A stretch of 64,000 nt of DNA, from positions 1,088,001 to 1,152,000 of the forward strand of contig OY781066.1 of NCBI GenBank assembly GCA_963676395.1. The letters are read 5' to 3'. Each line of letters starts with the position of its first letter. Positions within the stretch are counted from its first letter, which is position 1. Source of the DNA: a bacterium. Lineage in GTDB: Bacteria; Fidelibacterota; Fidelibacteria; Fidelibacterales; Fidelibacteraceae. The position numbers and the translations under genes were made by a program. This document shows positions 832-47,751 of the stretch, in pieces. The notes beneath the pieces are model-generated. The model saw nothing but the letters and a program-made list of their open reading frames with translations. It was not told the DNA's origin and did no database searches.

Positions 832-2085
832 ATGTCAATTCTCATCAAGAATACTTTAGTAAATAACAATCAATGCGATGTGCTAATAGAAAACAATTAT
901 TTTTCTAAAATTGGAAGTAACATCCAAACTCAAGCAGATACGGTTATTGACGGGAGCAGATTTGCCGTTCTTCCGGCTTTTTATAATATGCATACGCACT
1001 CTGCCATGACGCTATTACGAGGCTATGCGGACGATCTCGGGCTATATACGTGGTTAAACGACCATATTTGGCCTCTTGAAAGTAAACTTAAAGAAGAAGA
1101 TGTTTATCATGGTACGCGATTAGCCATACTTGAAATGGTCAAAAGCGGGACAGTCTTTTTTAATGACATGTACTTTTTCCCTCATGGCACGGCAAAAGCC
1201 GCAGATGAGATGGGAATACGTGCTGATATTGCACCTGTATTGATTGATGGATGTGACAGCAAGAAATGTGATGACATGATAAATTATACCAAGGAAACTA
1301 TCTCGCACTCAAAGGACTATTCATCTCGAGTTCGATTTACGGTTTCACCTCATGCCATTTATACTGTCTCGGCTGAGACTCTTAAAGCTTCTGCAGATCT
1401 ATCTCGCAAAGAAAACCTCCCATTTCAAATACATGTTTCCGAAACTCAGAATGAATACAAAGAATGTATGAAAGAGCATGACAAATCTCCGGTGCAATAT
1501 TTGGATTCTTTAGGTGTACTATCAGATAACGTAACTGCTGTTCACTGTATATATCTTGATGATAAGGATCGCGAGATCCTAAAAAACAGAGGCGTCAATA
1601 TCGCACATTGTCCGGCATCGAACATGAAACTTTCTTCAGGAAATTTAAACTACGCAGCTATTCGTAAAGCCGGTGTAAAGATCACGCTCGCAACAGATGG
1701 AGCAAGCTCAAACAACAACCTCTCCATGCTGGATGAAATGAAACTCGCTGCGCTACGCTCGAAGTGTCATAACGAAGATCCCACAGTCGCTTCGGCTCAA
1801 GAAATATTTAAAATGGCAACCAAAGATGGCGCAAAGGCAGCCGGATTACATGCCGGGGAAATTCAAGAAGGATATCTAGCCGATTGTATGCTTGTAAATT
1901 TGAACCACGTGTCATTAACTCCATCAGATAATCTAATATCCGATATGGTTTATTCGGCCTCTCCCGAATGCATTGATACCGTTATATGTGACGGACGTAT
2001 CCTAATGCAAAACAGAAAAGTCAAAAATGAAGAGAAAATTATTCAAGCAGCCAATGCTTGCTATCGGGATCTACTTAAAAGATAA
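832..2085 (+). CDS. Amidohydrolase, 5-methylthioadenosine/S-adenosylhomocysteine deaminase (MtaD)-like
   Basis: NMHTH metal motif, PHAIYT, IHVSET, HCPASNMKL, TDGASSNN; starts 1 nt after the rarA stop. Confidence 0.85.
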   Translation: MSILIKNTLVNNNQCDVLIENNYFSKIGSNIQTQADTVIDGSRFAVLPAFYNMHTHSAMTLLRGYADDLGLYTWLNDHIWPLESKLKEEDVYHGTRLAILEMVKSGTVFFNDMYFFPHGTAKAADEMGIRADIAPVLIDGCDSKKCDDMINYTKETISHSKDYSSRVRFTVSPHAIYTVSAETLKASADLSRKENLPFQIHVSETQNEYKECMKEHDKSPVQYLDSLGVLSDNVTAVHCIYLDDKDREILKNRGVNIAHCPASNMKLSSGNLNYAAIRKAGVKITLATDGASSNNNLSMLDEMKLAALRSKCHNEDPTVASAQEIFKMATKDGAKAAGLHAGEIQEGYLADCMLVNLNHVSLTPSDNLISDMVYSASPECIDTVICDGRILMQNRKVKNEEKIIQAANACYRDLLKR

Positions 2086-2108
2086 TCTATCAAACGTATA
2101 TATCTTGT

Positions 2109-2140
2109 ACCCCCGCTTTGATCGGGGGTTTATTTTTTAT
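2109..2140 (+). terminator. Rho-independent terminator
   Basis: ACCCCCG-loop-CGGGGGT followed by a T-rich tract, just after the amidohydrolase. Confidence 0.75.
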
Positions 2141-2148
2141 TCGATTTT

Positions 2149-2164
2149 TGTGACTTACGTCACA
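2149..2164. promoter_or_regulatory. CRP/FNR-family-like operator
   Basis: TGTGA-cttacg-TCACA, exact TGTGA-N6-TCACA consensus, about 170 nt upstream of the 2333 ORF. Confidence 0.45.
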
Positions 2165-2332
2165 CTATTTGGGCAGGTGTTTTTATTTATATGAAATATG
2201 ATCTATATTCTTTTGGGAAAGAATTCATTGAGGTTTAATAGTAAAATATCCGACTCATAGAATACCTCTACGAAGTCAAACTGAAACACAATATAAAAGG
2301 ACTGTATGGCAGTCCAATAAAAGGGACGAAAC

Positions 2333-4684
2333 ATGGGACGAAATAAATTTTTCTCTTCGGGGAAATGGCTATTTTTAATATTAATATACTCTTCATCATT
2401 TTCTCAGATCATACTCAACGAAATGATGATCGATCCAAGCAATGAAAATACCGGTGAATTTATTGAGTTATACAACACCTCTGATTCCATCATCGATCTG
2501 AGCAATTTTTATATTTGTGATGAGCAAGACACCGATAAACTTATCCCGTTTCCCGATTCAATACTCCCTCCACATCAATATGCCATTATACTGGATCCGA
2601 ATTATGAAGGCGAATATTTACATATACTACCTGACACATCGTATTTACTTTGTATTGATGATTCGAGATTCGGAAAATACGGTATATCAAATTCAACTGA
2701 AAAAACCTTTTCACTGCTGGATAATAACAAACAGATTTTGGATAAATATCGCAGCGGAACTCCCGAGTGGCCAAAAACAAATTATACTATCGAACGCTAC
2801 TATCCATATCAAGATATTTGGAGAAGTTCAATATTAAAGTTTGGCAGCCCCTGTAGAAAAAATACTATATCTCCACAGGACAAAAGCATCAATATTACTA
2901 ATGTTTCCTCTAAACTTTTGGATGATTCTTTAGAGATCAATTTCACTATATTAAATAACGGAACCAGCTTAATTGACCATATTGTCTACAGCATATCTTT
3001 AATATTCGACAACCTCTCTACCGAAATCAATCAAACACTTACCGATTCAGTAGAAATTGAAATTACTCCTTTTGATTCCATTACCATCACCCGGCATTTT
3101 CCAATTTTTTGTAAAGGAAAGTGCACGACTCAGGCTATAGCTTGCTACGATGAATGTATCGATACATTTACTTCCTTTGCTCACATTCCTCTTGCAGAAA
3201 ACGATATGATCATAAATGAATTTGTATGTAAACCAAGAAATAACTTTTCTTGTGAGTATATTGAACTTATATCTAAGTGCTCCTTACCTATTCAACTTTA
3301 TGGGCTCAAATTTTTCGATCTTACCGACTTCGTTGTACTTGACACCAATTACATTCTTATGCCGGACTCCCTAGTTGTGATTGCCCAATCCATGTCCTTT
3401 TACGATGACTTCCCATTTGTTACAAATACACTCTACCCCAGCGCATGGCGTAGTTTAAACAATAGCGAAGATCTCATACATATCACAAATAATGATATAT
3501 CTTCCATTTGTTATTTGCAATATGATAACAATTGGGATCTTGCCGATGACTGCGCCATGCTGCTTGTTGACACAACATTAGATTATCGAAACCCAAGACA
3601 TTGGGAAGTCTCACAAGATGGTAGTCCGGGCAAGCCAAACATCAGCGAACAACAACTGACTCAACTTTCTTGTTATTCCTCCCGAAATTATTATACGATT
3701 AAAGACACATTCGCGATCTTTATTATCAATAATGGTTTTCTCAACACAGATGCGCTTTCGTTCCGGGTTAATGAGGAATTTTTAACACTACCACCTTTAG
3801 CCCCCGGAGATAGTTTTTTATGTTATCCGGATACTTCTCGATATACAACTGAAGGTTATAACTATATTGATATCGAATGTGAACCATATTTTTTACATCA
3901 TATTAAATATTATAGACCCTACTCTGCACCTCCTTGTTTTTTAAATGAGATCATGTTTGATCCTTTGGACACATATTCACAAGCGGAGTTCATTGAACTC
4001 GAAAGCATACACTCTTCATTAGACCTAAGTCATTGGAAAATACGCATAAACAAACGTACTGTAGAACTTAGTGACTCATTGCATTCAGCTTTTTCCGTAT
4101 TCTGCTCCGATAATAACACCTTAGGCTGGAGTTCAAATACCTACGAATACTCCACCTTCCCTTCTTTGCCAAACTCGGGAGCGGAAATATATCTACTTGA
4201 TCCGATGGATCGTATAATAGACTTTTGTGATTTTCGCGATCATAAAAAAATAATAAAAGGTAGAAGTTTGGAAAAACAATTTACCGGTATATCTTCTTCG
4301 GATACCGAATTATGGCACGCATCAGTCGCGGAATCCGGAATGAGTCCAGGTTACAGAAACAGTATAAGTGCGCACCCTTCCGGGCGAAACTCACTTGGCG
4401 TTTATCCTAAAATCTATTCACCCGATAATGATGGAAACATTCAATTCAGTGTTGATTCTGAATCAGGTCTAGAGTATTGTGAACTTTCGTGTTTTAACTT
4501 GGCGGGAAAACTTATAGTCAAAAAAACACAAAATTGTTTTATGCAATCCTCGGCAATGATATTTTGGGACGGAAAACTATCTGACAAATCTTATCTCCAA
4601 CGTGGAGTTTATCTAATCTCTTGCAAACTTTTCACGCTAGAGGGAAAAATTCTAAGATTAAAGGATTCTTTTGTTGTAAAATAA
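2333..4684 (+). CDS. Secreted lamin-tail-domain repeat protein with FlgD-Ig-like C-terminal domain
   Basis: Signal peptide; three (L/I)NE...E(F/Y)IEL...(G/M)SP modules; C-terminal FNLAGKL...WDGK...GVY. Confidence 0.7.
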   Translation: MGRNKFFSSGKWLFLILIYSSSFSQIILNEMMIDPSNENTGEFIELYNTSDSIIDLSNFYICDEQDTDKLIPFPDSILPPHQYAIILDPNYEGEYLHILPDTSYLLCIDDSRFGKYGISNSTEKTFSLLDNNKQILDKYRSGTPEWPKTNYTIERYYPYQDIWRSSILKFGSPCRKNTISPQDKSINITNVSSKLLDDSLEINFTILNNGTSLIDHIVYSISLIFDNLSTEINQTLTDSVEIEITPFDSITITRHFPIFCKGKCTTQAIACYDECIDTFTSFAHIPLAENDMIINEFVCKPRNNFSCEYIELISKCSLPIQLYGLKFFDLTDFVVLDTNYILMPDSLVVIAQSMSFYDDFPFVTNTLYPSAWRSLNNSEDLIHITNNDISSICYLQYDNNWDLADDCAMLLVDTTLDYRNPRHWEVSQDGSPGKPNISEQQLTQLSCYSSRNYYTIKDTFAIFIINNGFLNTDALSFRVNEEFLTLPPLAPGDSFLCYPDTSRYTTEGYNYIDIECEPYFLHHIKYYRPYSAPPCFLNEIMFDPLDTYSQAEFIELESIHSSLDLSHWKIRINKRTVELSDSLHSAFSVFCSDNNTLGWSSNTYEYSTFPSLPNSGAEIYLLDPMDRIIDFCDFRDHKKIIKGRSLEKQFTGISSSDTELWHASVAESGMSPGYRNSISAHPSGRNSLGVYPKIYSPDNDGNIQFSVDSESGLEYCELSCFNLAGKLIVKKTQNCFMQSSAMIFWDGKLSDKSYLQRGVYLISCKLFTLEGKILRLKDSFVVK

Positions 4685-4745
4685 CATAAATGTTTGAATA
4701 GCATTTATTGACGCGTAAATTTATACCATCACTAAAGGAGAATAT

Positions 4746-5288
4746 ATGAAAAAATTACTAAGCACCTTACTTTGTCTTGTCTTTGTTTCGTGTGGTGTAA
4801 ATAGCCTTGAGTTCAGCAAATTTTCTAAATCAATGGATGTTATCAACTCTATTGATCTTAAAAAGTATCTCGGAACATGGTATGAATACGCCAGACTTGA
4901 TGTTTCCTTTGAACGCGGAATGATCAACACGCAGGCAAAATACGCTCTGTTAGAACCGGATAAAGAAGGACGCACTTGGATCAAAGTCACAAACTCAGGA
5001 GAAAAAAATGGAAAAGCAAAAAAAGCTGAAGGCAAAGCTGTTATTGCAGATCCCAATCAACCTGCACGCTTAATGGTTTCTTTCTTTGGTCCTTTTTATG
5101 GTGATTATAACATTATTGCCTTAGATACGGAGCACTACAGGTGGGCTTTAGTCGCCGGCGGTTCAAAAGATTACCTGTGGATACTTACACGTGAGAAAGA
5201 CCTAGACCCGAAGATCTTATATTCTCTCAAAACCCGTGCCCAAATGTATGGTTTTGATACAGACAAATTGATCTATCCTCAGGAATAA
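4746..5288 (+). CDS. blc: Lipocalin family outer-membrane lipoprotein (Blc)
   Basis: Lipobox FVSC, YLGTWYEYAR, SFFGPFYGDY, YLWILTR; AGGAG RBS. Confidence 0.9.
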   Translation: MKKLLSTLLCLVFVSCGVNSLEFSKFSKSMDVINSIDLKKYLGTWYEYARLDVSFERGMINTQAKYALLEPDKEGRTWIKVTNSGEKNGKAKKAEGKAVIADPNQPARLMVSFFGPFYGDYNIIALDTEHYRWALVAGGSKDYLWILTREKDLDPKILYSLKTRAQMYGFDTDKLIYPQE

Positions 5289-5574
5289 AATATAATTTCA
5301 TATTTTAGCGATCGTAATAAACCGTTTATATTTTTGATACGGTTCTTTATTTTCCTACGTCTTTGCAACTTTCATAAACATTATTTGTAATCAAATCATG
5401 AATTTACAGATAACGAAAGTAGCATTAATAAGCATATATTGTTCGTGGATCAAAACTCGGAGTGCATTAAAAAGAGATCTTGAAATAATTAACAAAAACC
5501 GAATAGCTATTCATCTCAGAACTTCACTCGAAACATGGATTCGCAAATTCCAGGATAAAAATATTCCGTAAAGT

Positions 5575-5601
5575 AAAAAGGGTTGGACACGTCCAACCCT
5601 T
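5575..5601 (-). terminator. Terminator downstream of secA
   Basis: AAGGGTTGGAC-ac-GTCCAACCCTT perfect hairpin with A-tract on its left. Confidence 0.8.
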
Positions 5602-5628
5602 ATGTTTTCAATCAGTTTCTAGTATGAT

Positions 5629-8600
5629 TTATACAGCTCCGTGACAATGTTTGTATTTCTTGCCACTGCCGCATGGGCATGGATCATTTCGACCCACTTT
5701 GGGCATATCGCGCTTAACCGGCTCGGCTTTACCTGCTTTGGGCGCTTGAGGTTGAGAGGGTGTATTCACTCCACCTTGTTTTGCACCTTCGGCAAAAGCC
5801 ATATTCTGACTTTGCGCTTGAGATACGCGCACTTGTTGTGGCGACGGAGATTCATCTTGAAGTTTAATATCAGTTCTAAACAATAACCTCAAAGCTGTTT
5901 TATTGATCTGTGCCAACAAATTTTGAAATGATTCAAATGCCTGAGCTTTATAAATCAATAAAGGATCTTTCTGTCCATAAGCCTGAAGACCAACACCTTC
6001 TTTGATCTGATCAAGTTCATAAAGATGTTCTTTCCATAAGCCATCAATGCTGTTTAAATAAGCCCAACGTTCAAAATCACGCATAACCTCCGAAGGGTAA
6101 AGCATTTTTTTTCTATCATAAGTTTCTTTGGCTTGTTGTGTAAAATACTCTACAATTTCTTCACGTTTCATATTTTGATGATCACTGGGAATGTCGCACA
6201 TAAGCGTTGTCAACATTTCCTGACGCAATGCATCCCACATCCAATTGGCCGGATTTGAATCTGCGGTATGATCTTCAACTTCCGAAGAAATAAACTCTTC
6301 CAACATCATGTTGATCTCACTCTGTAGATTACCACCTTCAAGAGCATAGGAACGACGATCATAAACAACTTCTCGTTGTTTGTTCATCACATCATCATAT
6401 TCAAGAAGATGTTTACGTATGCCAAAGTTTCGTTCTTCAACACGCTTTTGTGCTCGTTCGATCATACGAGTCATCATAGGCATAGAAATAACTTCATCAT
6501 CGGGAATGGCATCGAGCAGGGCGTTCCCACGAAGGTTTCCGAAAAGGCGCATGAGGTCATCTTCGAGCGAAATGAAAAAGACAGATTCGCCGGGGTCACC
6601 TTGTCGCCCCGCTCGACCGCGTAACTGATTATCAATACGACGTGATTCATGTCGTTCAGTTCCGATGATCTTAAGTCCACCCAATTCACGAACTTCATCA
6701 TTTATCTTAATATCCGTACCACGACCGGCCATATTTGTGGCAATGGTAACGGCACCGGGTTGTCCCGCAAGCGAAACAACATCAGCTTCCCGTTGGTGCT
6801 GTTTAGCATTCAACACATTATGTGGAATACCTGCCCGCTTTAATTGTTTTGCGATCATCTCAGACATTTCAACCGAGATAGTACCGACAAGCACAGGTTG
6901 GCGACGTTTAAAGCAAGCAGCGATCTCATTTATAATCGCATTGTGTTTTGCCTGCCGACTTTTATAAATCAAGTCATCCTGATCATTTCTAATAACCGGT
7001 TTATTGGTTGGAATTGAAACAACTTCCAGGTCATAAATTTCTTCAAACTCGTTTGCTTCGGTCGAGGCCGTACCTGTCATACCCGCCAACTTATCATACA
7101 TACGGAAGTAGTTCTGAAGCGTGATCGTAGCCAAAGTTTGGTTTTCACCTTCGATACGTACACGTTCTTTAGCCTCAATAGCTTGATGTAATCCGTCGCT
7201 ATAACGACGTCCGGGTAAAATACGACCGGTGAATTCGTCAACGATCAAAACCTTGCCGTCTTTTACTACATATTCAACATCTTTTTCATATAAAGCATAA
7301 GCTCTTAACAGCTGAGTGATATTGTGGATCATTTCTGATTTTTGACCATGTTTCTTTTGCAATTCAGCTTTTGCTTTAGCTTTATCCTCTGCACTTGCAG
7401 TTTCATCGCTATCGATCTTTACAAACTCTTCACCAATATCGGGAATAACAAAATACTCAGGATCTTCTGGGTTCATCACATGACGACCATCATCAGAAAT
7501 GACGATCGTATGAGATTTTTCATCAATAGCATATAAAAGCGAATCATCAATCTCATGCAGGCGTTTTTCCTGCATAAAAAAGTTTTCAGTTTTATATAGT
7601 TTATCCTGTACTTCCGCCGACTGCATCATTTTCAGGAATCGGGGGTTTTTAGGTTCTCCGTGTTGAACCTGTAATAACATTGTCCCAAGTTCCAGTTCAT
7701 GATCTCTGTCATCGGGAAGACGCTGGATCTCATCTAATAATGTATTGATCTTTTTCTTTTGGGCGCGCACAAGTTTTTCAACCTGTGGTCTCAATTTTTT
7801 ATAACGTTCATTAGAATTTGATTGAACCGGACCGGAAATGATCAGAGGTGTTCTCGCCTCATCAACAAGCACGGAATCGACCTCATCAACAATAGCATAA
7901 TAATGTCCACGCTGAACCATGTTCTCATGTCTGATCGCCATATTGTCCCGAAGATAATCAAAACCAAATTCATTGTTCGTACCATAAACAATATCACAGG
8001 CATATTGCTCTTTACGAGCATTAGGCGGCATTGAATTCAATATTTTCCCAACACTCAAGCCAAGAAAACGATAGATCGCGCCCATCCACTCAGCATCACG
8101 TTCAGCCAAATAATCGTTCACGGTCACAACATGCACACCGCGTTTTGTCAGGGCATTCAAAAAGATCGGCATGGTCGCAACCAAGGTCTTACCTTCACCC
8201 GTTTTCATTTCGGCAATATTACCGTTATGAAGAACCTCTGCACCCATAAGCTGAACATCAAAGGGAATCATGTTCCACTCGAGCTCATTTCCGAGCACAT
8301 TGAATTTCTTTCCGACAAGTCTTTTTGCCGTTTCTTTAACTATTGCAAAAGCTTCAATCTTCAGCTTATCCAGAGCAGTCTGTTCAGCTTCATAGATCAT
8401 TTTATCTTTTGCTTCATTATCTAGTTTATTTTCTTCAGCTTTATTTTTTGCTTCTTCACGTTGATCATGTATATAAACGATCATCTCTTGTGTTCTGGCT
8501 CGAAGATCATCATCACTTAAATCATGCATTGTATCATATTTTGCATTTATCTCTTCAGGAAGGCCCGTGATCTTTTTTAAATAGCGGTCGGAAGAAGTGC

Positions 8601-9461: not shown

Positions 9462-10340
9462 GTGAAAAGACCCATAAAAATATTGTTATCGCTTCTTGGC
9501 TTCACTTGCCTGTTTGCCGGTGAATTCTTTGAAGATTTTTCTTACAGAAATACCCTTGATCCCAAACTTAATGAACGCGGCTGGACGATTGTTTCGGGAC
9601 TAAGCGCTCCTCCCCAAAATGCAAAATATATAGCTAAATATATTTCGTTTACCAAAGACCCTAATGATGATGCAAACACCATCTTGGAGATAAAGGCCAG
9701 CTGCCGAAACACTAAAGACAGTATGCGTCACTCTCGCATTGAATCCGGTATCCGCTTTTTAGAGGGCACCTATGCAACTCGCATCCATTTCAACAACGAA
9801 ATGAAAAAAACAAAAGACGGTAACATTCAAGCTTTCTATACTATTTCGTCACCATTAACCGAAGAACGCCCTGAATACTCTGAATGTGATTTTGAATACC
9901 TTCCCTACGATATTTGGAATGATATGGGTAAAACCCGACCCGCCATCTATGCCAGTACCTGGGAGAATTACATAAGCGATCATGCCACTGAAGACCTTGC
10001 ACAATATATAAAAAAACAAAAACTTAAAGGCTGGCATCTGGTCATCATTCAAATCATGAATGGCGAAGTTTCTTATTATTTAGATAATAGTCAAAAACCT
10101 ATCGCCATACATAAGATATCCGATAAAGGTTCTGACGTATACCCGGAATCACTTATGAGGATCGCCTTCTCAAATTGGATATCAAAAGTAAACTTAAAAC
10201 AAAACAAACGACGTACCTCTACAATAAAGGTTGATTGGGTCTATCACATTGAAAATAAGGCCTTATCCTTAAATGAGGTTTATAAACGAGTCAGACTTCT
10301 TCAAAAGGACGACATAAGATATTTAGATACAATGGAATAG
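9462..10340 (+). CDS. Secreted glycoside hydrolase family 16-like protein
   Basis: Signal peptide from GTG 9462 (AGGA RBS); catalytic ExDxE motif (ECDFE); GTY, GWH and VDWV beta-jelly-roll motifs. Confidence 0.65.
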   Translation: MKRPIKILLSLLGFTCLFAGEFFEDFSYRNTLDPKLNERGWTIVSGLSAPPQNAKYIAKYISFTKDPNDDANTILEIKASCRNTKDSMRHSRIESGIRFLEGTYATRIHFNNEMKKTKDGNIQAFYTISSPLTEERPEYSECDFEYLPYDIWNDMGKTRPAIYASTWENYISDHATEDLAQYIKKQKLKGWHLVIIQIMNGEVSYYLDNSQKPIAIHKISDKGSDVYPESLMRIAFSNWISKVNLKQNKRRTSTIKVDWVYHIENKALSLNEVYKRVRLLQKDDIRYLDTME

Positions 10341-14092: not shown

Positions 14093-15472
14093 TTACTTTG
14101 CTTTGACGGTAATAAAACGTTTATTACCGTTTTTTGTTTCAATTAAAATTAAAACTGTTTGGTTTTTTTCAAATTTATCGAATTCGCGATGATAATCATC
14201 AATATCCTTAACCGTTTTACCTTCAAGTGTGATAATTCTATTACCGGGACGAAGTCCTTTTTGATAGGCTTCGGATGAAGGTTTTACTTTTACGATCACA
14301 ACACCTTTTTGGGTATCTAATCCAAATTCTCTGGCCAATTCTTCACTGTTGTTCCTGACGGAAAATCCAAGATCGATATCCACTTCGGCTTCTTCGAGAT
14401 CGGCCAAAGTTTTTTCACCGGGGATCTCATCAAGTTTTACGTTAATATTCTTAATCTTTTGGTCTCTTACCAAAGTCAATTTTACGGTTTCACCGGGTGA
14501 ACGGGATGAAATATTGATCTGTAGTTCTGAAGGAGTTTCTACATCTTCGTTGTTTACTTTGATGATCACATCACCGGCCTTTAGTTTGGCTGATTCTGCG
14601 GGACTGTCTTCAACAACATCCGAAATAAGTACACCGTCAATATCATCCAAACCAAGAGATTTGGATAGATCCTGATTTAATTCTTGTATGTTCACACCCA
14701 ACCAGGCGCGTATCACACGACCTTCGGAAATTAGATCATTCATCACTTTCTTGGCAAGATCAATGGGGATAGCAAAACCTATACCATTTGAACCACCACT
14801 GCGGCTTAAAATAGCAGAATTAATACCAATCACTTCGCCATTGAGATTAACCAAAGCACCACCGGAGTTTCCCGGGTTGATCGATGCATCGGTCTGGATA
14901 TATGATTCATATGTATTCAAGCCGACACCGGAACGACCCAGTCCCGATACAATACCGTGAGTAACCGTATTACCAAGTCGGGCTGAAAAGGGTGAGCCTA
15001 TAGCAAGAACAAATTCCCCTACACTAACGTCATCGGATTCACCGAGTTCTGCCGCGGGAAGTTTATCACCATCAATTCGAAGCAAAGCAATATCGGTCTT
15101 TGAATCTCCACCGATAAGTTCAGCTTCAAATTCGCGTTTATCAGACAAAACAACGGTAATCTCTTCGGCATCCTTAATAACATGATTGTTGGTAATAACA
15201 TAACCGTCTTTTACCAAAACACCCGATCCCAAAGCAGACGAGCGGTATTCGCGTTCTTTTTTAGGTGTATCAAAACCAAAAAACTCAAAAGGAATATTCA
15301 ATTCGGCCAAGGGGTTATTGATTTTGGTTACACGCTCTGCAGTAATCGTAACAACTGAAGGTGATACTTTATCTGCAACATTAACAAACTGATCAGAAAG
15401 TGATCGTAGGTCCTGTGCGCCAAGCGGCACAAGCATAACAGCGACCAGTAAAATTGACATCCATTTTTTCAT
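14093..15472 (-). CDS. degP: Do/DegP/DegQ family serine endoprotease with two PDZ domains
   Basis: TNNHV, DIA, QTDASINPGNSGG catalytic triad; two PDZ domains; signal peptide; AGGAG RBS before ATG 15472. Confidence 0.92.
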   Translation of the reverse strand: MKKWMSILLVAVMLVPLGAQDLRSLSDQFVNVADKVSPSVVTITAERVTKINNPLAELNIPFEFFGFDTPKKEREYRSSALGSGVLVKDGYVITNNHVIKDAEEITVVLSDKREFEAELIGGDSKTDIALLRIDGDKLPAAELGESDDVSVGEFVLAIGSPFSARLGNTVTHGIVSGLGRSGVGLNTYESYIQTDASINPGNSGGALVNLNGEVIGINSAILSRSGGSNGIGFAIPIDLAKKVMNDLISEGRVIRAWLGVNIQELNQDLSKSLGLDDIDGVLISDVVEDSPAESAKLKAGDVIIKVNNEDVETPSELQINISSRSPGETVKLTLVRDQKIKNINVKLDEIPGEKTLADLEEAEVDIDLGFSVRNNSEELAREFGLDTQKGVVIVKVKPSSEAYQKGLRPGNRIITLEGKTVKDIDDYHREFDKFEKNQTVLILIETKNGNKRFITVKAK

Positions 15473-15672
15473 TTGTTTTCTCCTATTCAATCGTTGTCAT
15501 AAATGAATAGAGATCGGCGAAAGTTCCAAAATTTTTAAAAAACCTCCATGACAATACCTCGAATTACGAATATCAATTAATGAATAAGAATTTTTGGGTT
15601 AGAAAAATGAATGGGAATTCTTGAATTATCAATCCGAACGACCCTCCGCCACCAAGCCCCGAAAAAAATAAC

Positions 15673-15701
15673 TTGTATAAAATGTAATTTCAGACTAAGT
15701 T
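15673..15701 (+). promoter_or_regulatory. Putative sigma70-type promoter heading cassette array 1 (Pc-like)
   Basis: A-tract, then TTGTAT-N17-TAAGTT. Confidence 0.4.
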
Positions 15702-15790
15702 AACTACGAACATAACAAAAAGCTATAAAACTTGGACGTCTATCAGATAAAACAGACAGGACTAAAGTATTAAAGAGAAATAAACACAAT

Positions 15791-15850
15791 AAACAATACA
15801 TGCCATATTGGAGATATATACACAATAGGCATACACTAACGTTGTAAAAC
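15791..15850 (+). repeat. First recombination site of array 1 (short attC-like hairpin or attI-like site)
   Basis: TGCCATATTG...CAATAGGCA hairpin followed by core GTTGTAAAAC (15841-15850), the exact reverse complement of GTTTTACAAC at the end of the next gene. Confidence 0.55.
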
Positions 15851-15856
15851 ATTAAA

Positions 15857-16786
15857 ATGAGAGATATGAAATGGCCAAATGATAAAGAGTTTGCATTTAC
15901 GATAATAGATGATACGGATAATGCAACATTAGATAATATTGCTTCTGTTTATTCATTTTTAGCAAGTAAAAATATCAAAACCACGAAAACAGTGTGGATT
16001 TATCCTTCAAGAAATAATTTTACTGGGCAAACTATACAGAATGATGATTATTTTTCATTTCTTTTTAATTTAGAAAAGCAAGGATTTGAAATACAATTAC
16101 ATAATGTTGGAAGTGGAAAATTTAAACGTACAGAAATAATTGAAGGATTAAAAATATTCAAAGAAAAATTTGGAAGATATCCTAAAATGCATATAAATCA
16201 TTCTTCCAATCCAGATAATTTATATTGGGGTTATAAAAGATACGGTATTGTCCTAAGAAGTATAATTAAGTTGTTAAAAGGTAAAATAAGACGATTTTAT
16301 GGAGATGAAATTGAAAGTGAATATTTTTGGGGAGACTACTCCAAGGATAAGATTAAATTTATCAGAAATAGAGCTTTTAATGGTATTAACACTTTGAAAT
16401 ATGACCCTCGAATGCCATTTAAGGAAAAGCATAAGGAATATACTAACTATTGGTTTAGTTCATCTGATGGACATACAGTTGAGGAGTTTAATGATTTAAT
16501 ATCAAAATCTAATATAAACGAACTAAAAAGACAAAATGGTTTATGTATAGTTTATACTCATTTTGCTTCCGGGTTTATTGATTCTAATGGCAAACTAAAT
16601 GAAAGGTTTAAAGAAAATATAGAATATTTGTCAATTCAGAACGGATGGTTTGTACCTGCAAGTGAAATATTAGAGTATTTAATATCTCAAAAGAAAAAAG
16701 ACTATGTTAGCAGTTTTTATATTAATGTCTTGGATTTTAAATGGCTATCAAATAGGATTTTAAAGAAAATGAAATATGGACGATAA
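15857..16786 (+). CDS. Cassette gene: polysaccharide deacetylase-like (NodB/CE4-like) hypothetical protein
   Basis: FAFTIIDDTD, GFEIQLH, IVYTHF, WFVPASEIL patterns. Confidence 0.55.
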   Translation: MRDMKWPNDKEFAFTIIDDTDNATLDNIASVYSFLASKNIKTTKTVWIYPSRNNFTGQTIQNDDYFSFLFNLEKQGFEIQLHNVGSGKFKRTEIIEGLKIFKEKFGRYPKMHINHSSNPDNLYWGYKRYGIVLRSIIKLLKGKIRRFYGDEIESEYFWGDYSKDKIKFIRNRAFNGINTLKYDPRMPFKEKHKEYTNYWFSSSDGHTVEEFNDLISKSNINELKRQNGLCIVYTHFASGFIDSNGKLNERFKENIEYLSIQNGWFVPASEILEYLISQKKKDYVSSFYINVLDFKWLSNRILKKMKYGR

Positions 16787-16790
16787 CGTT

Positions 16791-16921
16791 TTACAACAAT
16801 AAATATACGTAATGCGGGGCGATTTGCTAAATTTAAACTTTGATACATTTAATAAACAAGGTAACGGTTAGATAGTAAGGAGCTTAGAAATCCCGCACTA
16901 CGCATATTCAAGCCGTTAGCG
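16791..16921 (+). repeat. attC-like site (131 nt)
   Basis: R''-like TTACAAC 16791-16797; arms AATATACGTAATGCGGG (16802-16818) and CCCGCACTACGCATATT (16892-16908) pair 15/17; R'-like GTTAGCG 16915-16921. Confidence 0.8.
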
Positions 16922-16959
16922 GCAAGTTAAAGAGAAGACCCTGCAAAAAATGATGCATA

Positions 16960-18984
16960 TTGAAAAAGATTGATTTACATATTCATACTAAAGCTTCAAT
17001 TACAGATGCTGATTTTTCTTTTAGTTTAGATAAATTAAAAGAATATGTTGAAACTCTTAAAATAGATTGTATTGCTGTAACGAATCACAATCTATTTGAT
17101 TTGGAACAGTTTCAAGAGATTTTTAGAGAATTATCCTGTAAGGTTTTACCAGGTGTAGAAATAAACCTAGAGAAAGGGCATTTGTTGTTAATTTCGGAGA
17201 ATACGGAGCTTGAAGAATTTGAAAGTAAATGTAAAAAAGTTGAAATACTAATTGAAAATAAAGACGATTATATTTCTGTGGCTCAATTGACAGAAATATT
17301 CGGAGACTTGTCTAGATATTTGCTTATTCCTCACTATGATAAAGCAAAAGTTATTCGTCAAGAAACAATAGACGAACTAAGTAGTTACATTTCAGCAGGG
17401 GAAGTCGGTAGTCCGCGAAAATTTACATATTGCATTAAAAATCCACAAAGTTTAGTTCCTGTATTATTTAGCGATTTACGTTTTAAAGAAGAGATGACTG
17501 AGTTCTCTCCGCGCCAAACATTTATTGATATTGATGACACATCTGTAAGAGCCATTAAAATTTGTTTGGCTGATAAAGACAAAGTTTTTCTGACTGAATC
17601 AGAAGGTCATAGGTTTTTTCAAGTATTTGAAAATGGACAAAAGCTATCAAACGGACTAAATGTCATTTTAGGTAAACGTTCAAGTGGAAAGAGCTTTACA
17701 TTAAAAAGAATTTATAGGGATTTTGATAATGTAAAGTTTATTGAACAGTTCGAATTACTTGAAAAAAATGAAGAAAAGGATAAGAAAAGATTCAATGATT
17801 TGCTATCCACCAAACAAAATAGTGTTTCAGAGGAATATCTTAAAGAGTTTAAAGAGGTTGTCGATGATATTTTAAAGATTGACCATGTTGAAAATGAAAA
17901 GGCTGTTGAAAATTATCTTGATTCATTATTAAAAGTAGCTTCTGAAGAGGAAAAAAAGGATGTTTACTCAAAGTGTGCACTTTTCAATGAAAGTAAATTT
18001 ATTGAATCAGAAAATGAAGGTTTAAAAAGACTTATTGATTCAACCCAAATGTTAATTGACAACATTGAATATCGGGATATTATTGACAAACATGTATCAA
18101 AAGAGTCGTTACGAGAATTAATCATCGATTTGATTTTGAAATACAGAGAACTTCAAGAACTAAATCAAAAACAATTATGGGTCAACTCAATTATTTCGAA
18201 TATAAAAATAGAACTAAAGTCTAATACAGCCTATTCTTCGATTGACGAGATTGATTTTTATCAAATACAGTTTGATAAAATCAAACTATTAAAGTTTTCT
18301 GATATTGTTAGTAGCGTTAAGAAGGAAAGAATCATTAAGCAAAATGAAGTTAGGCGGTTTAAAATTGTAGCAAGCACAAAATTATTTAAAGGTGCTCAAG
18401 AACTTTTAGATAAAAGTGGAAAGAAGACTCGATTTAAAGATGCATTTGATAAATATGAAAATCCAATTGAATATTTAGATGAGTTAAAGCAAATTGAAGT
18501 ACTTCCTGAAACAGACTACTATAAGTATTTTATAGAAATAGAATACATGATTTTAAATGAACATGGAGTAGAGGTATCAGGAGGAGAACGTTCAGAATTT
18601 AATCTTTTAGAAAAAATTCAAAATGCTCATCACTTTGATATGTTGCTGATTGACGAGCCTGAATCCTCTTTTGATAATTTATTTCTTAAAAATGATGTTA
18701 ATGAACAGATTAAGGAAATTGCAAAATCAATGCCTGTGATAATTGTAACACACAACAATACTGTTGGGGCATCAATCCAACCAAATTATATACTTTATAC
18801 AAAAAGAGAGATTATAGATAAAAAAGCAGTTTATAAAATATTTTCTGGAAATCCATCTGACCCTGAATTAATGACAATTGATGGAGAAAAAATTGAGAAC
18901 TATGAAATCATGCTGAATTGTTTAGAGGCTGGGGATTCAGCTTATAATGAACGAGGAAAATCTTATGCAACACTTAAAGATTAA
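16960..18984 (+). CDS. PHP phosphoesterase + ABC/SMC-like P-loop ATPase fusion (Ppl/TrlF-like; candidate anti-phage protein)
   Basis: DLHIHT, VTNHN, GVE, PH, FSD (PHP); Walker A GKRSSGKS; coiled region; signature SGGE; Walker B LLIDEPE; VTHN. Confidence 0.8.
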   Translation: MKKIDLHIHTKASITDADFSFSLDKLKEYVETLKIDCIAVTNHNLFDLEQFQEIFRELSCKVLPGVEINLEKGHLLLISENTELEEFESKCKKVEILIENKDDYISVAQLTEIFGDLSRYLLIPHYDKAKVIRQETIDELSSYISAGEVGSPRKFTYCIKNPQSLVPVLFSDLRFKEEMTEFSPRQTFIDIDDTSVRAIKICLADKDKVFLTESEGHRFFQVFENGQKLSNGLNVILGKRSSGKSFTLKRIYRDFDNVKFIEQFELLEKNEEKDKKRFNDLLSTKQNSVSEEYLKEFKEVVDDILKIDHVENEKAVENYLDSLLKVASEEEKKDVYSKCALFNESKFIESENEGLKRLIDSTQMLIDNIEYRDIIDKHVSKESLRELIIDLILKYRELQELNQKQLWVNSIISNIKIELKSNTAYSSIDEIDFYQIQFDKIKLLKFSDIVSSVKKERIIKQNEVRRFKIVASTKLFKGAQELLDKSGKKTRFKDAFDKYENPIEYLDELKQIEVLPETDYYKYFIEIEYMILNEHGVEVSGGERSEFNLLEKIQNAHHFDMLLIDEPESSFDNLFLKNDVNEQIKEIAKSMPVIIVTHNNTVGASIQPNYILYTKREIIDKKAVYKIFSGNPSDPELMTIDGEKIENYEIMLNCLEAGDSAYNERGKSYATLKD

Positions 18985-19282
18985 TGATAACAAAGGGTTT
19001 TATCAAATAGAACCTAACCAATGGAAAGAGATTGATAAAATCGACAAGGAAGATTTGATGCTTTTATTGGATAAAGCAATAGAATCAGAGTTTGAAATGG
19101 ATAAATTTGAAGCTGATAAAATATCCAACAAAGCGCATTCTATAATTTATAGAAACCTTTATGAAAAATTCTCAGAATTGTCTGAAAACAAGAATAGATT
19201 TAAAGATGAAAGCGAATTATTGTACAAGAATGCTTTTGATAAATACAGCCAGATTGAGTCTAATGAAACTGATGAAGGATAA
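18965..19282 (+). CDS. Small acidic hypothetical protein overlapping the PHP-ATPase gene
   Basis: GAGGA RBS before ATG 18965; 20-nt overlap with the upstream gene; same cassette. Confidence 0.7.
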   Translation: MQHLKINDNKGFYQIEPNQWKEIDKIDKEDLMLLLDKAIESEFEMDKFEADKISNKAHSIIYRNLYEKFSELSENKNRFKDESELLYKNAFDKYSQIESNETDEG

Positions 19283-19289
19283 AACCAGC

Positions 19290-19420
19290 TGCTAACACGC
19301 AATATACGTAAGCTGGGTGATGTAGCCAATCTAAGCCTTTGTACATTTATTCAAAATTACAGTGGTTTGATAAGTATTTTCTCCGAAATCCCAGCCTCCG
19401 CATATTGCCATCCGTTATAC
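19290..19420 (+). repeat. attC-like site (131 nt)
   Basis: R''-like TGCTAAC 19290-19296; arms CAATATACGTAAGCTGGG (19300-19317) and CCCAGCCTCCGCATATTG (19390-19407) pair 15/18; R' GTTATAC 19414-19420. Confidence 0.8.
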
Positions 19421-19519
19421 ACAATTCAAAAATTATTTTCCTAAGCAGTAAAATGATGATAGAGTTTCAAACTGTGGATAAATTCGATTTTTTCTTTTAT
19501 TATAGTGGGGGATAATATT

Positions 19520-19927
19520 ATGAACAACGAACAAACAATTAAACTCGTAATTAGCAGGCTTATTGAAGAAGGCAAATTGGATGTAGTCGAAAAATCATTT
19601 TCAAAAAACTATGTCGCCCACGCAGGAGAAAAAGAGTACAAAGGACATGATTTTATTAAAAATTTTGCCGAACAGCTTCATTCTGCAATTCCCGATATTA
19701 AAGTCGTAAAAGTTGAATTCCTGAATAAATCAGGAAATATTATAACGTGGCAGAGAATATTAAGCGGGACACATAAAAAAAATATGATGAGAATTCCTGC
19801 GAGTGGCAAAAAAGTAAAATGGATTGAAATGGTGGTTAGCCGTTTTGAAAACGGAAAGATTTCTGAAGAATGGATTGTCTCAGAACTTATGGGGCAATTA
19901 TTATTAAAAGCTCCTACAAAGAAATAA
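19520..19927 (+). CDS. SnoaL-like ester cyclase (NTF2 fold)
   Basis: AIPDI, GTH...IPASGKKV, RFENGKISEEW. Confidence 0.85.
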   Translation: MNNEQTIKLVISRLIEEGKLDVVEKSFSKNYVAHAGEKEYKGHDFIKNFAEQLHSAIPDIKVVKVEFLNKSGNIITWQRILSGTHKKNMMRIPASGKKVKWIEMVVSRFENGKISEEWIVSELMGQLLLKAPTKK

Positions 19928-19965
19928 TAAAAATAACAAAGAATATTGGAAAAGGGACTTATCAT

Positions 19966-20367
19966 ATGGAATACTTGGGTTCTTGTTTATGCAAAGGAAT
20001 TAAATTTAAAGTTATCGGTGATTTTGAGAGTTTCTATTTATGCCATTGCAGATATTGCAGGAAAGACACCGGGTCTGCTCATGCGGCCAATTTATTTTCT
20101 ACAACAGCAAAAATAGAATGGATAAAAACGGAAACGGAAATTAAGATATTTCAACCGCATAAAAGCAATCATGTGAAGGCCTTTTGTACAAATTGTGGTT
20201 CCGCTCTACCTAATTTGCAAATGGATGGCAAACTTTTAGTCGTTCCGGCAGGATGTTTAGATACTGAATTAGAAAAAAGACCTAATGCACATATTTTCAT
20301 TTCAAATAAAGCAAGTTGGGATGAGTCGCTGGAAAAAATATATAAATTTGAACGTTTCCCAGAATAA
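19966..20367 (+). CDS. GFA (CENP-V/Mss4-like) family protein
   Basis: GSCLC, CHCRYCRK, FCTNCGS, HIF...KASW. Confidence 0.9.
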   Translation: MEYLGSCLCKGIKFKVIGDFESFYLCHCRYCRKDTGSAHAANLFSTTAKIEWIKTETEIKIFQPHKSNHVKAFCTNCGSALPNLQMDGKLLVVPAGCLDTELEKRPNAHIFISNKASWDESLEKIYKFERFPE

Positions 20368-20610
20368 TAAATATAAGTACATCTGCTCCATTTTTTTGCA
20401 GACATCGAGAAACAGCTTAATCAAGATTAATCGATTAGTATTAAAACTTAATGCTTTTTATAAGTAATGGCAGTAAATGTGGTAAATATAAAGGTTTTTA
20501 GCCCGTCTAAAACATTATTAAATATCTTTTTTGTCCCGTTGGGGCTGTTATATTTTTGGGAACGATATACTCCCGGGTTTCGAAATGTTTGACCGCAATG
20601 CGACCCTTTA

Positions 20611-22023
20611 TTATCTTCTAAGGCGATCCGTCAATCGTTCCTCCGCCATTGCGATCAGGTCTGCTGAAGTTTTTTGATGTCGCTTGATTAGATCTTTTTC
20701 ATCCAGCTCGCGGATCTCACCATTCACTACCACATGCTCACCGTTGATGATCACATGGTCGACCGGACTCATGGCAAAGTTAAAGACAATGGCGGCGGCG
20801 GGATCATGCAGTGCGCCGGAGTACTCCAGCTTATCCATGTCGATCAAATTAATGTCGGCACATTTACCGGCTTTGATCTGCCCGATGTCATCTCGTCCCA
20901 ATGCTTTGGCGCCTCCCACCGTTGCCATCCACAGGACTTCTTCGGTGTTAAGCCAATATTTGGGCTCACGGAGTCGGGAAAGCAACATGGCGTTACGGAC
21001 TTCCAACAGCATATTCGAAGAATCGTTCGATGCGGAGCCGTCAACAGCGATGCTCACATTTGCACCGGCTTCGAGCAGTTCTTTTACCCTGCAAATGCCT
21101 GAACCAAGTCGCATGTTCGAAGAGGGACAATGTGAGGTACCGATCTTCATCTTACCGGCTTCGGCGATCTCTTCATCATTTAAAAAGATGGAATGTGCAA
21201 ACCAGGCATAGGGCTTAACCCAGCCCAGAGTTTTCATATAAGCGAATGGTCGTTCGCCACTGCGCTCTATGCAAAATTCTTCTTCATCTTTGGTTTCAGC
21301 AAGATGTGTATGGATCTGCAGGCCGTGTTTCTCGGCAACCTCCACCGTCTTACGCATGGAGTCTTCGGTTACCGAAAAAGGTGAACAGGGCGCTAATGAA
21401 ATTCGCAACATAGAACCAAAAGTATCATCATGATATCTTTCCACCAGTCGTTCGATATCTTCAAAGATCGTTGCTTCACTTTGGATCACATCATCGGGTG
21501 GCAGCCCGCCGTCTTTCTTGCTTAAGGACATTGAGCCCCGCGTGGGTTGAAAACGCATACCCAATTCTTGCGCTGCCTGAATTTCGGAATCGATCAACGT
21601 TCCTTCAGCTTTTTTGGGAAACAGATACAAATGATCGGAGCTGGTAGTACAACCCGATTTCATTAATTCGGCCATAGCCGCTTTGGCGGAAATGTAAAAG
21701 GCTTCTTTGCTGATACCGCGCCAGATCTCATAGTTAGTGATCAACCACTCAAAAAGCTCTGCCTTTTGAGTGGAGTATATATTCCTCGTAAGAGTTTGAA
21801 AAAAGTGATGATGCGTATTCACAAAACCCGGTAGCACCAACATGCGCGAGGCATCGATCACTTTATCGGCTCTCCCGGTAAATTCCTCCGGTCCGGCCGA
21901 AACGATGAGATTATTCTCCATATAGATATGCCCTCCACTAAAGGTATCAAGCACATCATTTGTATTAACATCTTCTTTCATGCGACAGCACAAAAGCGGG
22001 TTTTTAATTAAGATCGAACTCAT
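20611..22023 (-). CDS. 8-oxoguanine deaminase-like amidohydrolase
   Basis: NTHHHFFQTLTR, RGSMSL...GGLPPD, APCSPFSV, HTHLAET, HCPSSNMRLGSG, VDGSASND. Confidence 0.85.
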   Translation of the reverse strand: MSSILIKNPLLCCRMKEDVNTNDVLDTFSGGHIYMENNLIVSAGPEEFTGRADKVIDASRMLVLPGFVNTHHHFFQTLTRNIYSTQKAELFEWLITNYEIWRGISKEAFYISAKAAMAELMKSGCTTSSDHLYLFPKKAEGTLIDSEIQAAQELGMRFQPTRGSMSLSKKDGGLPPDDVIQSEATIFEDIERLVERYHDDTFGSMLRISLAPCSPFSVTEDSMRKTVEVAEKHGLQIHTHLAETKDEEEFCIERSGERPFAYMKTLGWVKPYAWFAHSIFLNDEEIAEAGKMKIGTSHCPSSNMRLGSGICRVKELLEAGANVSIAVDGSASNDSSNMLLEVRNAMLLSRLREPKYWLNTEEVLWMATVGGAKALGRDDIGQIKAGKCADINLIDMDKLEYSGALHDPAAAIVFNFAMSPVDHVIINGEHVVVNGEIRELDEKDLIKRHQKTSADLIAMAEERLTDRLRR

Positions 22024-43292: not shown

Positions 43293-43321
43293 AATTTCCG
43301 ACAATGAGGGGCAAATGTCAA
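43293..43321 (-). promoter_or_regulatory. Putative promoter of the purine catabolic operon
   Basis: Minus strand TTGACA-N17-GAAATT ending 7 nt before ATG 43285; the -10 is weak. Confidence 0.35.
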
Positions 43322-43896
43322 GAAAATAATAGCCCCTACGGTGCAAGGCAAAGGGCAAAATTCAAAAGGCAAAGAAAGATCTATCCACAAATTGCTCTCC
43401 TTCAGCAAGCCTTCGAAAGGTCGGGTAGATAATAAATCTACATTATCTAATCAATATTTCTGAGATTCTTTTCCATTCTTCTCCAGAAAAAGAAGATTTT
43501 TCAGGTTTATATGAATTCCAGTCCGCACTTGATAAATCTTTAATTTTATCTCGCAATTCTTTTGCTGAATGCGGGCGCGTGCATAATTTTGTGTAAACGA
43601 TCTTTCAATCAAAGTTCCTCCTACGCTCTTCGAGCTTACATCTTCTCCGTCAGCCGACGGATTTGATGCACAGATCGGAAGGGCACGCAGATTTCTTTAC
43701 GTTTTTATCGGCAAAATCGATGCCCGACGACTTAAAATAATGCATCTATTTAATAAAATATTTTTGGGCGCATCGTGAACACTAAAGCTACGACCGGACA
43801 GGCGAAATCCACACAATCTTGTCCTTTTATAAAAGCTATGACTTTTAGCTATCCCATTACATAATAATATTAGTTTTAGAAATACAATAAAAGGAC

Positions 43897-43925
43897 TTGA
43901 TGAATACGGGGGTTTAAGCTAGATT
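43897..43925 (+). promoter_or_regulatory. Repeated promoter-like module, copy 1
   Basis: TTGATG-aatacgggggtttaagc-TAGATT (17-nt spacer). Confidence 0.45.
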
Positions 43926-44140
43926 CACATTAATTGCTATACAAATAAGAATTGCAGAATTGCGTAGCTAAAAAAATGAACACTCGGATTCAAAATCGGG
44001 GGGACAAAATTTTTGGAGCATTCATGCAAAAATGCATGTACAAAACAGGCCTGATTTTAGTAAATTTAAACTCTGAAACCCAAAATTGGATGCTATTCTT
44101 ACACTTTGCCGTTAAACACTATTAAAACAAGGATCCGCTA

Positions 44141-45274: not shown

Positions 45275-45569
45275 TCATGATAACAGAAAAATCACAGTCA
45301 TTCATTTTATAGCACTAAACATTTGCAAGCTACAAAGCCAAGCCATCATGTATATCTCGTGATCTCGTCGAAAACATCTCGTTAAAGATGTCTTAAACAA
45401 TATCAATCAAGCGATCGATTTGACGGTGAAGGGCAATAAGAAATAGGTTCCGAATTCCAAATTTATGATTCTTGATTTAATCTAGATTGCGTCTCCTTTA
45501 ATCATATTTAATTATCTTTATTAATTATTTCTATATTTTTCATCTTATTCCCCAAAACACAAAAACAAG

Positions 45570-45598
45570 TTGCCGAATACGAGGGTTTTAATTATATA
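45570..45598 (+). promoter_or_regulatory. Repeated promoter-like module, copy 2
   Basis: TTGCCG-aatacgagggttttaat-TATATA. Confidence 0.45.
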
Positions 45599-45788
45599 AA
45601 CCCAGAAATAAGAATTGTTCATATTTCAGGTTTGCATATGACAATAGAATCAATTGAAAATTATAATAAATCAAAATATTTTAATGAATTGCTTAGAAAT
45701 ATGATTGATTATAAGCTAAGAAACTCTCGCCATCTGCCACTACCCATATAATTTACCGTCAGATGTTATAAATACCGGTAAGCGAAAA

Positions 45789-46653: not shown

Positions 46654-46698
46654 TTATGAAATTAGTTAACACACATAAAAATGAAATACATAAAAAAC

Positions 46699-47639: not shown

Positions 47640-47751
47640 TGCTAACAGTGTGTATAAGTAATATCATGGCTTGTAGTTCGTATCAACATTATCACGGTTT
47701 GATAATTAATTGCTCCAAAGTCCGCCACTACTCATACACGAACCGGTAGCA
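47640..47751 (+). repeat. attC-like site (112 nt, mutated core)
   Basis: TGCTAAC directly after the stop codon; GTGTATAAGTAAT and ACTACTCATACAC arms; R' degenerate GGTAGCA. Confidence 0.7.

Follow-up and report, generated by a model that had tools for sequence, protein, structure and literature searches.

In classical integrons, an insertion in the integrase IntI reads the extrahelical bases of the cassette sites (attC), and this additional domain is one of the two signals that IntegronFinder searches for. Sedentary chromosomal integrons with an 'inverted integrase', co-oriented with the cassettes, occur in Treponema and others, and for the pdif modules of Acinetobacter plasmids movement by XerC/XerD has been proposed. 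Here we describe a locus from a bacterium of the family Fidelibacteraceae that resembles an integron and differs from it in its recombinase. The window, that is, the whole stretch of 64,000 nucleotides analyzed, is G000:C1:1088001-1152000 (contig OY781066.1 of assembly GCA_963676395.1) and belongs to a single 2.34-Mb contig of a genome that is 95% complete. Positions 15778-20513 of the window likely represent a satellite cassette array of an integron-like gene-capture system, which is probably served in trans and is probably decaying at its far end.

The additional domain of IntI is called defining and necessary for integron recombination in the passage of Ghaly et al. that deals with it (PMC9668308, citing Messier and Roy 2001). 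For a subgroup of 'integron-like' recombinases, the corresponding passage of Smyshlyaev et al. states that the insertion is not fully conserved, and no more than that (PMC8138268). In the terms of the IntegronFinder 2.0 paper, a CALIN is a cluster of attC sites lacking an integron integrase, and the same paper reports almost no integrons in Bacteroidetes, with one complete integron in Bacteroidetes proper (PMC9024848). Integron integrases are described as inserting cassettes at secondary genomic sites as well (bioRxiv 10.1101/2022.09.11.507474), and defence cassettes are described as abundant in Vibrio integron arrays (bioRxiv 10.1101/2024.07.02.601686). A search of the full-text literature yielded no account, for the phyla considered here, of integron-like systems whose recombinase is without the IntI domain.

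The system described below shares with sedentary chromosomal integrons a recombinase gene beside a docking site (attI), co-oriented cassettes mostly without a recognizable promoter, an imperfect AAC...GTT palindrome at the end of each cassette, cassette starts that are complementary to their own distal site, site types that are alike within the genome, and a cargo rich in anti-phage genes. In contrast to them, its recombinase has no IntI insertion, and its sites have other cores, a 17-bp stem without a conserved extrahelical base, a tightly fixed length, and a loop motif, CGGTTTGAYARG, that is common to the site types. The window array is similar to a CALIN in having at least two attC-type sites in a row and no recombinase within 390 kb; unlike a CALIN, of which this is not required, it starts with a near-perfect copy of attI, and its sites belong to a non-IntI system. 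The system thus shows every sequence-level trace of integron cassette capture in the absence of the IntI domain and of extrahelical bases: it behaves like an integron and lacks one defining feature, the IntI domain. The duplication of the docking site at a second locus and the presence of several arrays per recombinase are new here.

Docking site and cassettes of the window array

At the main locus, attI starts 6 bp beyond the stop codon of the recombinase gene. The 68 bp past this stop recur at window positions 15778-15845 with one mismatch (67/68), and the genome contains no third copy; therefore, the window array opens with a copy of the docking site. The identity runs through ...ACACTAACGTTGT and ends at the GTT(GT) that opens cassette 1, from where each locus has its own first cassette. 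The window locus comprises a second docking-site copy, followed by two intact cassettes and a tail in decay, and is inserted between an htrA-like and an amidohydrolase gene that are neighbours in related genomes (Table 1).

Cassette 1 starts with GTTGTAAAAC (15841-15850), whose exact reverse complement, GTTTTACAAC, is found at 16788-16797 (10/10 complementary) and begins 1 base past the TAA stop codon (16784-16786) of the 309-aa open reading frame (ORF). Cassette 2 starts with GTTAGCGGC (16915-16923), to which GCTGCTAAC (19288-19296) is complementary at 8/9 positions. The two intervening sites, 16791-16921 and 19290-19420, share AATATACGTAA, GAAATCCC and CGCATATT at equivalent positions. A preliminary description of the locus had reported these reciprocally complementary cassette ends and the two 131-nt sites with their common motifs; the ends agree with it to the base, and the sites are as described. 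The attI copy, the decayed third site and the cluster at 45.7-47.8 kb are additions to that description. All five ORFs of the array are open, and the G+C content is 0.28-0.33 in the insert versus 0.35-0.48 alongside. Copies of the sites exist in other genomes: attC site 1 has an 82%-identical counterpart in a genome of another family (G029:C5:1313-1454), and attC site 2 a 73%-identical one at G025:C7:67869-67992.

Table 1. Features of the window array and its surroundings. Site lengths count from the 7-mer with AAC at its end through the 7-mer with GTT at its start; R1 is the covariance model described in the next section.
Feature	Position in window	Strand	Description
htrA-like gene, left flank	14093-15490
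Orphan attI-like docking site	15778..15845	+	67/68 copy of G000:C1:713800-713867; match stops at GTTGT, the crossover region
Cassette 1	15842..16915	+	Single ORF, 15857-16786, 309 aa, function unassigned; attC site 1 at its end
attC site 1, type B	16791..16921	+	131 nt; recombinogenic fold predicted on the bottom (-) strand; R1 129.0 bits (training member)
Cassette 2	16916..19414	+	Two genes; candidate anti-phage system PDC-M49A + PDC-M49B
PDC-M49A gene	16960-18984		674 aa; PHP + ABC-type ATPase
PDC-M49B gene	18947-19282		111 aa
attC site 2, type B	19290..19420	+	131 nt; R1 111.7 bits (training member)
Decaying distal array end	19414..20513	+	SnoaL-like gene, 19520-19927; GFA-family gene, 19966-20367; site remnants
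Vestigial type-B site start	about 20366-20390		3' of the GFA-family gene; sequence inspection and blastn to main-array sites
Type-A attC, 5' half only	20440-20513		Without 3' half; blastn to main-array sites, 81-88% identity; alignment
Amidohydrolase gene, right flank	20611-22023
Type-A attC, 3' half	45712..45759	+	GTC replaces GTT; begins at about the alignment column where the 20440-20513 half stops
Full attC, second small cluster	47640..47751	+	R1 66.9 bits, not a training member; ends a region with alpha/beta-hydrolase and HXXEE-family genes (Pfam)

Four different cassettes are found behind the conserved left half of attI. They start with GTTGTGCCCA in the main array (with an Abi_alpha gene), with GTTGTAAAAC in the window, with GTTAGGGGCA on a metagenome contig (with a methyltransferase-like ORF), and with GCTATCGGTA in the genome G006 (with a TIR-like ORF). 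A scan of metagenomes with a degenerate attI pattern returned one contig, and a scan with the exact pattern returned none. One contig, G031:C108, stops one base past the GTT. Of the 29 loci around recombinase homologues in the phylum, 11 are on a contig that breaks off 34-207 nt beyond the recombinase match, a pattern that fits assembly breaks at the boundary, without proving them.

In G006 (L021/L130, G006:C155, ~380-700), the recombinase gene is cut down to its last codons and the attI-like site (with GCT for GTT) and its TIR-like first cassette persist. The remnant sits in an xerD-M50-rsgA neighbourhood, as does the recombinase gene of the genome studied here. The recombinase is found in 4 of 21 genomes of the genus, in which the platform is ancestral and has been lost patchily.

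The protein encoded by cassette 1 has no Pfam, NCBIfam or PADLOC family match. In a protein atlas it falls into unnamed clusters only (0.98), with weak leads (0.85) to DUF2334 and polysaccharide deacetylase. Cassette 2 is a candidate for a complete two-gene defence system, PDC-M49A/B: the PADLOC models score 971.8 bits over residues 1-674 of 674 for PDC-M49A and 125.7 bits for PDC-M49B, and Pfam places a PHP domain in the former. None of 400 other genomes sampled from the phylum has a PDC-M49A homologue at E<=1e-30, and tblastn with the cassette proteins against all fetched loci found no relatives.

Both flanks of the array lie on one contig in 14 genomes of the same genus. In 13 of these, as a comparison proposed in the preliminary description now shows, the insert is absent: the flank matches are ~90-580 bp apart (93 bp in G015), versus 5.1 kb in the window. 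A search of 18 same-genus genomes gave no match to the cassette genes of the window.

In G002, the fourteenth genome, the htrA-like and amidohydrolase genes are separated by a gap of 4.5 kb. This gap (L018, G002:C23:18000-25644, ~1790-6260) holds a single reverse-oriented cassette with ORFs of 1043 and 110 aa and an attC at 2201-2330 (R1 64.8 bits). The cassette start, GTTACCC, matches GGGTAAT ahead of its own attC, and the cassette interrupts a small GIY-YIG gene, the one that fills the gap in G006 and G011. It looks like a secondary-site insertion. Cassettes have thus reached this gap twice, independently. With such insertions the window array has in common that its cassettes stand outside the main platform; in contrast to a lone secondary-site cassette with one attC, it consists of several cassettes behind an attI copy of its own. 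The GIY-YIG ORF in the gap of G006:C22 (L008) and G011:C62 (L010) is flanked by the inverted repeats GTCATCCYGAA...TTCRGGATGAC and is probably a small mobile element.

Fold, spread and circular signature of the attC-type sites

As single-stranded DNA, the bottom strands of the two window sites both reach -17.5 kcal/mol (z -2.60 and -2.03), values equalled by 2/200 and 5/200 shuffles, respectively. The top strands are less stable, at -15.5 and -13.2 kcal/mol (z -1.43 and -1.08). We built a covariance model, R1, from nine sites: the two in the window, five elsewhere in the genome, and two taken from other families of the phylum. The nine training sites, from three genomes, align across 130-132 nt. 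Their consensus bottom-strand fold is composed of a 5-bp stem (AACG with TGTT), an asymmetric internal loop of 6/3 nt, a continuous 17-bp stem, and a loop of ~73 nt, with compensatory double changes at 10 of the 22 consensus pairs. It has the R''-L''...L'-R' architecture of integron sites, the 5-bp stem corresponding to R and the 17-bp stem to L. At three pairs, each of the nine sequences has G-U, and the top-strand equivalents of these pairs are A-C mismatches. The consensus L stem shows no conserved bulged or extrahelical base, and individual sites have 1x1 mismatches only.

Both the AAC and the GTT triplet are present in 65 of 74 sites. The canonical cores are rare (RYYYAAC in 4/74 sites, GTTRRRY in 2/74), and the consensus here is SMYAAC(A) and (C)GTTRKS, so that the deviation from the canon pointed out earlier for the two window sites is a property of the whole family. 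After exclusion of three matches of 76, 191 and 196 nt, 69 of 71 sites measure 127-135 nt. The loop motif CGGTTTGAYARG (e.g., window 16863-16876 and 19363-19376) lies outside the paired stems and is kept across site types and families; it may be a binding site for a host or accessory factor.

The scan of the genome with a covariance model, also proposed at the outset, returns 11 strong sites (E<=1e-9) in four clusters, plus one doubtful site. Five are located at 715.4-724.6 kb, three in the window (16791, 19290 and 47640), and three at 1833.8-1837.1 kb on the opposite strand. Four of the 11 are outside the training set, with scores of 94, 66.9, 53.6 and 50.4 bits.

For each cassette we compared the 7 bases after the GTT at its start with the 7 bases before the AAC of its own distal site, using 44 consecutive pairs from 16 arrays; one of these pairs (window 19290 to 47640) is no real cassette. 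The mean complementarity is 5.6/7, and 31 of the 44 pairs reach at least 6/7, a level attained by 647 of 20000 random pairings (3.2%) and by 4 of 74 same-site comparisons. Most of the low scores span long gaps, in which a site was probably missed. The cassettes bear the trace of a circular intermediate cut at or beside the GTT. The site-specific acquisition of circular units suggested in the preliminary description is supported by this signature and by the lack of the insert at the locus in the same-genus genomes searched.

Long hairpin folds just past stop codons could also be structured intergenic repeats of the repetitive extragenic palindrome (REP) or miniature inverted-repeat transposable element (MITE) type, or terminators, without any relation to recombination. 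This is scarcely credible for elements that show such own-end complementarity, occur in four clusters only instead of genome-wide, and keep a strict orientation relative to a recombinase gene (see below). In addition, a terminator scan found no T-tract terminators at either window attC site.

A compact recombinase and its arrays

A tyrosine recombinase of 279 aa is encoded at C1:712955-713794, 390 kb from the window array. It passes the cut-off of the model NF040815, 'site-specific tyrosine recombinase/integron integrase' (237.9 bits, cut-off 220), and stays below that of the IntI model TIGR02249 (209.8 bits, cut-off 265), which it matches in two pieces with model positions 182-238 skipped. 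In the alignment with Vibrio IntI4 (2a3v), residues 15-179 and 204-274 correspond to 16-180 and 248-318, making the protein 43 aa shorter exactly at the IntI-specific insertion. The IntI-specific additional domain (patch III region) is therefore missing from the 279-aa recombinase. The insertion is likewise absent from all of 74 homologue ORFs (74/74), in which the KGxKxR and HxLRH motifs are spaced by 53-67 aa. An apparent IntI-like insertion in L117/L118 was rejected, the long tblastn span being due to a broken frame. The closest solved relatives are archaeal XerA proteins (PDB 4a8e, 5hxy). The N-terminal domain is PF13495, versus PF02899 in XerD. The other tyrosine recombinases of the genome are a true XerD (362.3 bits, cut-off 329.6), encoded 1.9 kb upstream of the recombinase gene, and one more Xer-type protein.

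A profile search of the single-contig genome found no TIGR02249 match above the cut-off, i.e., no canonical IntI. With tblastn, no recombinase or remnant is found beside the window array, and the genome yields only the 279-aa recombinase and the two Xer-type genes. The earlier statement that no integrase is nearby holds accordingly, and the suggestion of a poorly described cassette system of the FCB (Fibrobacteres-Chlorobi-Bacteroidetes) group is borne out by a cognate recombinase with the same docking site 390 kb away. The search for IntI-like tyrosine recombinases recommended with it revealed this recombinase with its matching docking site and none above the IntI cut-off.

The main platform, G000:C1:712955-724586, comprises the recombinase gene, the attI of 63-68 bp, and at least five co-oriented cassettes with ~131-nt hairpin sites between them; the site cluster at 715 kb starts directly past the recombinase gene, on the same strand. 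Its cargo includes Abi_alpha/PDC-S47, a 930-aa ThsA-like SIR2 protein, Septu PtuA/PtuB, and an HD-CE/ATPase gene. The cassettes obey the own-end rule, GTTGTGCCCA pairing with TGGGCACAAC and GTTGTGTGTA with TACACACAAC. A third array (G000:C1:1824001-1844000; sites 8347, 9780, 11353, 12974 and 15523) lies on the minus strand and has no attI copy. Its site 9780-9910 is a hybrid, with a 5' half like one site type and a 3' half like another, and therefore its arms pair poorly.

A scan of genome records gave 68 loci with relatives of the recombinase (28-82% identity), the named ones mostly from Bacteroidota. They include isolates of Mariniflexile, Flaviramulus, Flavobacterium, Psychroserpens, Polaribacter and Algibacter, and metagenome-assembled genomes labelled Chitinophagales, Bacteroidales, Melioribacter and others; homologues with arrays are found in records of Flavobacteriales, Chitinophagales and Bacteroidales. 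R1 has 59 matches in 24 of the 68 loci. The sites are downstream and co-oriented in 46 cases, upstream and divergent in 13, and otherwise arranged in none, so that in all 59 the cassettes read away from the recombinase. At L114, L117, L118, L119 and L104, five loci with more distant homologues (40-54% identity), the sites are upstream and divergent, which is the classical integron layout; even there the recombinase remains short, at 266 aa in L114.

With its R''/L''/L'/R' layout, AAC and GTT triplets, attI and own-end complementarity, and with a best-matching model whose NCBIfam name contains 'integron integrase', the system could be taken for a classical integron or a CALIN, in which a canonical IntI served, or still serves, ordinary attC sites. 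We consider this very improbable, in view of the lack of an above-cut-off TIGR02249 match in a 95%-complete genome, of the tblastn result, of the absence of the insertion from all homologue ORFs, of the rarity of canonical cores, and of the missing conserved bulge.

The protein resembles XerA and XerC/XerD, which are its best sequence matches, in size and in two-domain build. It could accordingly be a bystander, the units being Xer/dif-type modules moved by the host XerC/XerD; the xerD gene is close to that of the recombinase, which is itself equally close to Xer and IntI. However, the substrate of Xer recombinases is a single short duplex dif site on each replicon, whereas the 279-aa protein heads hairpin-bounded cassette arrays in a genome that has a separate XerD. 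The boundaries are 131-nt hairpins with a single AAC...GTT pair rather than short dif-like duplexes (no separate search for dif-like 28-mers was made), and the sites track the 279-aa family in 24 loci, many genera and a fixed orientation. Movement by the host Xer proteins is, in consequence, a highly unlikely explanation.

Decay of the array and significance of the system

R1 finds no full site in the distal end (19414-20513), where only remnants are observed (Table 1). The type-A half-sites at 20440-20513 (5') and 45712-45759 (3') point the same way, are interrupted at roughly one and the same alignment column, and are 25 kb apart. The 25 kb between them include a core block of 22 kb that is colinear in relatives. 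On alignment, the two halves look like one attC split in two.

From ~43.3 kb to at least 50.5 kb, the window has no DNA match in any of 21 same-genus genomes. This stretch (43300-50500) contains genes for a TPR protein, an alpha/beta hydrolase and an HXXEE protein, the attC 47640-47751, and genes for a LysR regulator and a PF03601 membrane protein, and looks like a second variable island.

Read evidence was taken from the contigs of the one public run in which the stretch is found. These contigs break within the attI copy (15786-15807) and within site 1 (16805-16821). The sole joint among them connects 20033 to 20449 (one contig, depth 4.6) and is not at a GTT boundary. Contig depth is 12.7-13.5 on the array versus 16.3-16.7 on the flanks, a difference that is not taken as a cell fraction.

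Several observations weigh against the sites or against their interpretation as a satellite array. Given its decayed distal end, the array may be a fossil, and the contigs of the public run contain no cassette-skipping joint at a GTT boundary, although this says little. The short motifs of the sites are at chance level in the window, with 3 matches versus 3.38 expected for CGCATATT and 12 versus 10.99 for AATATRCGTA with at most one mismatch; the three exact matches of the latter all fall within the two attC sites. A blastn search with both window sites found no further copy in the genome, and only the structure model found more; the case for the sites thus rests on structure and context. In turn, the R1 scores of the two window sites are circular, both having trained the model together with seven others, and the greater stability of the bottom strand (62 of 71 sites, by a mean of -2.3 kcal/mol) carries a bias, since the sites were picked with a model of that very strand. 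R1 finds no site in 44 of the 68 homologue loci, an outcome often due to contigs that end just past the gene. The ~250 bp to the left of the attI copy (15530-15778) match nothing. A scan for sigma-70 consensus promoters did not rise above shuffles (36 matches versus 26.6 +/- 5.8) and gave none in the attI copy, in a lineage whose promoter types are outside the scope of the tool. An origin of the array from a recombinase-made circle carrying attI was considered and dropped, the left junction GAG|AAAT being unlike the G|TT crossover.

One alternative is a fossil fragment: a part of the main platform, moved or copied to this locus, that has ceased to recombine and whose genes persist only as ordinary chromosomal genes. 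The far end, with its truncated type-A site at 20440-20513 and its vestigial type-B start past the GFA gene, the lack of a local recombinase and of excision joints in the contigs, and G006, in which the system is seen to decay to the last recombinase codons with attI and a cassette left, are all compatible with it. Conversely, the attI copy differs from that of the active locus at 1 of 68 bases, both full sites retain the complete fold with 129 and 111.7 bits, the five ORFs are open, and the same cell has an intact recombinase gene. On balance, we regard a fossil as unlikely and retain the interpretation of a satellite array.

Following the integron paradigm, the cassettes of this array would excise as circles and insert at the G|TT of attI through recombination between the folded bottom strand of attC and duplex attI. 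The single 279-aa recombinase would act in trans on the attI copy and the sites of the window. Strand choice could be set by the three invariant G-T wobbles, which are A-C mismatches on the top strand and would replace the extrahelical bases; a choice based on wobbles is coherent with a recombinase without the IntI insertion, which is the part that reads extrahelical bases.

More broadly, it is possible, though we would not yet call it probable, that bacteria of the FCB group run a separate class of integrons. Its hallmarks would be a compact, Xer/XerA-like recombinase without the IntI domain, attC sites of ~131 nt without extrahelical bases, strand choice by G-T wobbles, several arrays served in trans, and a duplicated attI as a second capture point. 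If true, this would be a second biochemical solution for the capture of cassettes with hairpin sites, and the minimal needs of a tyrosine recombinase for a folded single strand would become directly testable. A large, unsurveyed reservoir of cassettes would open. As this system lacks both of the hallmarks that integron finders rely on, the census that records almost no integrons in Bacteroidota would then be mistaken. One genome can hold several arrays per recombinase, and an attI duplicated away from its own gene may provide a second capture point, which in this genome now carries a complete candidate defence system.

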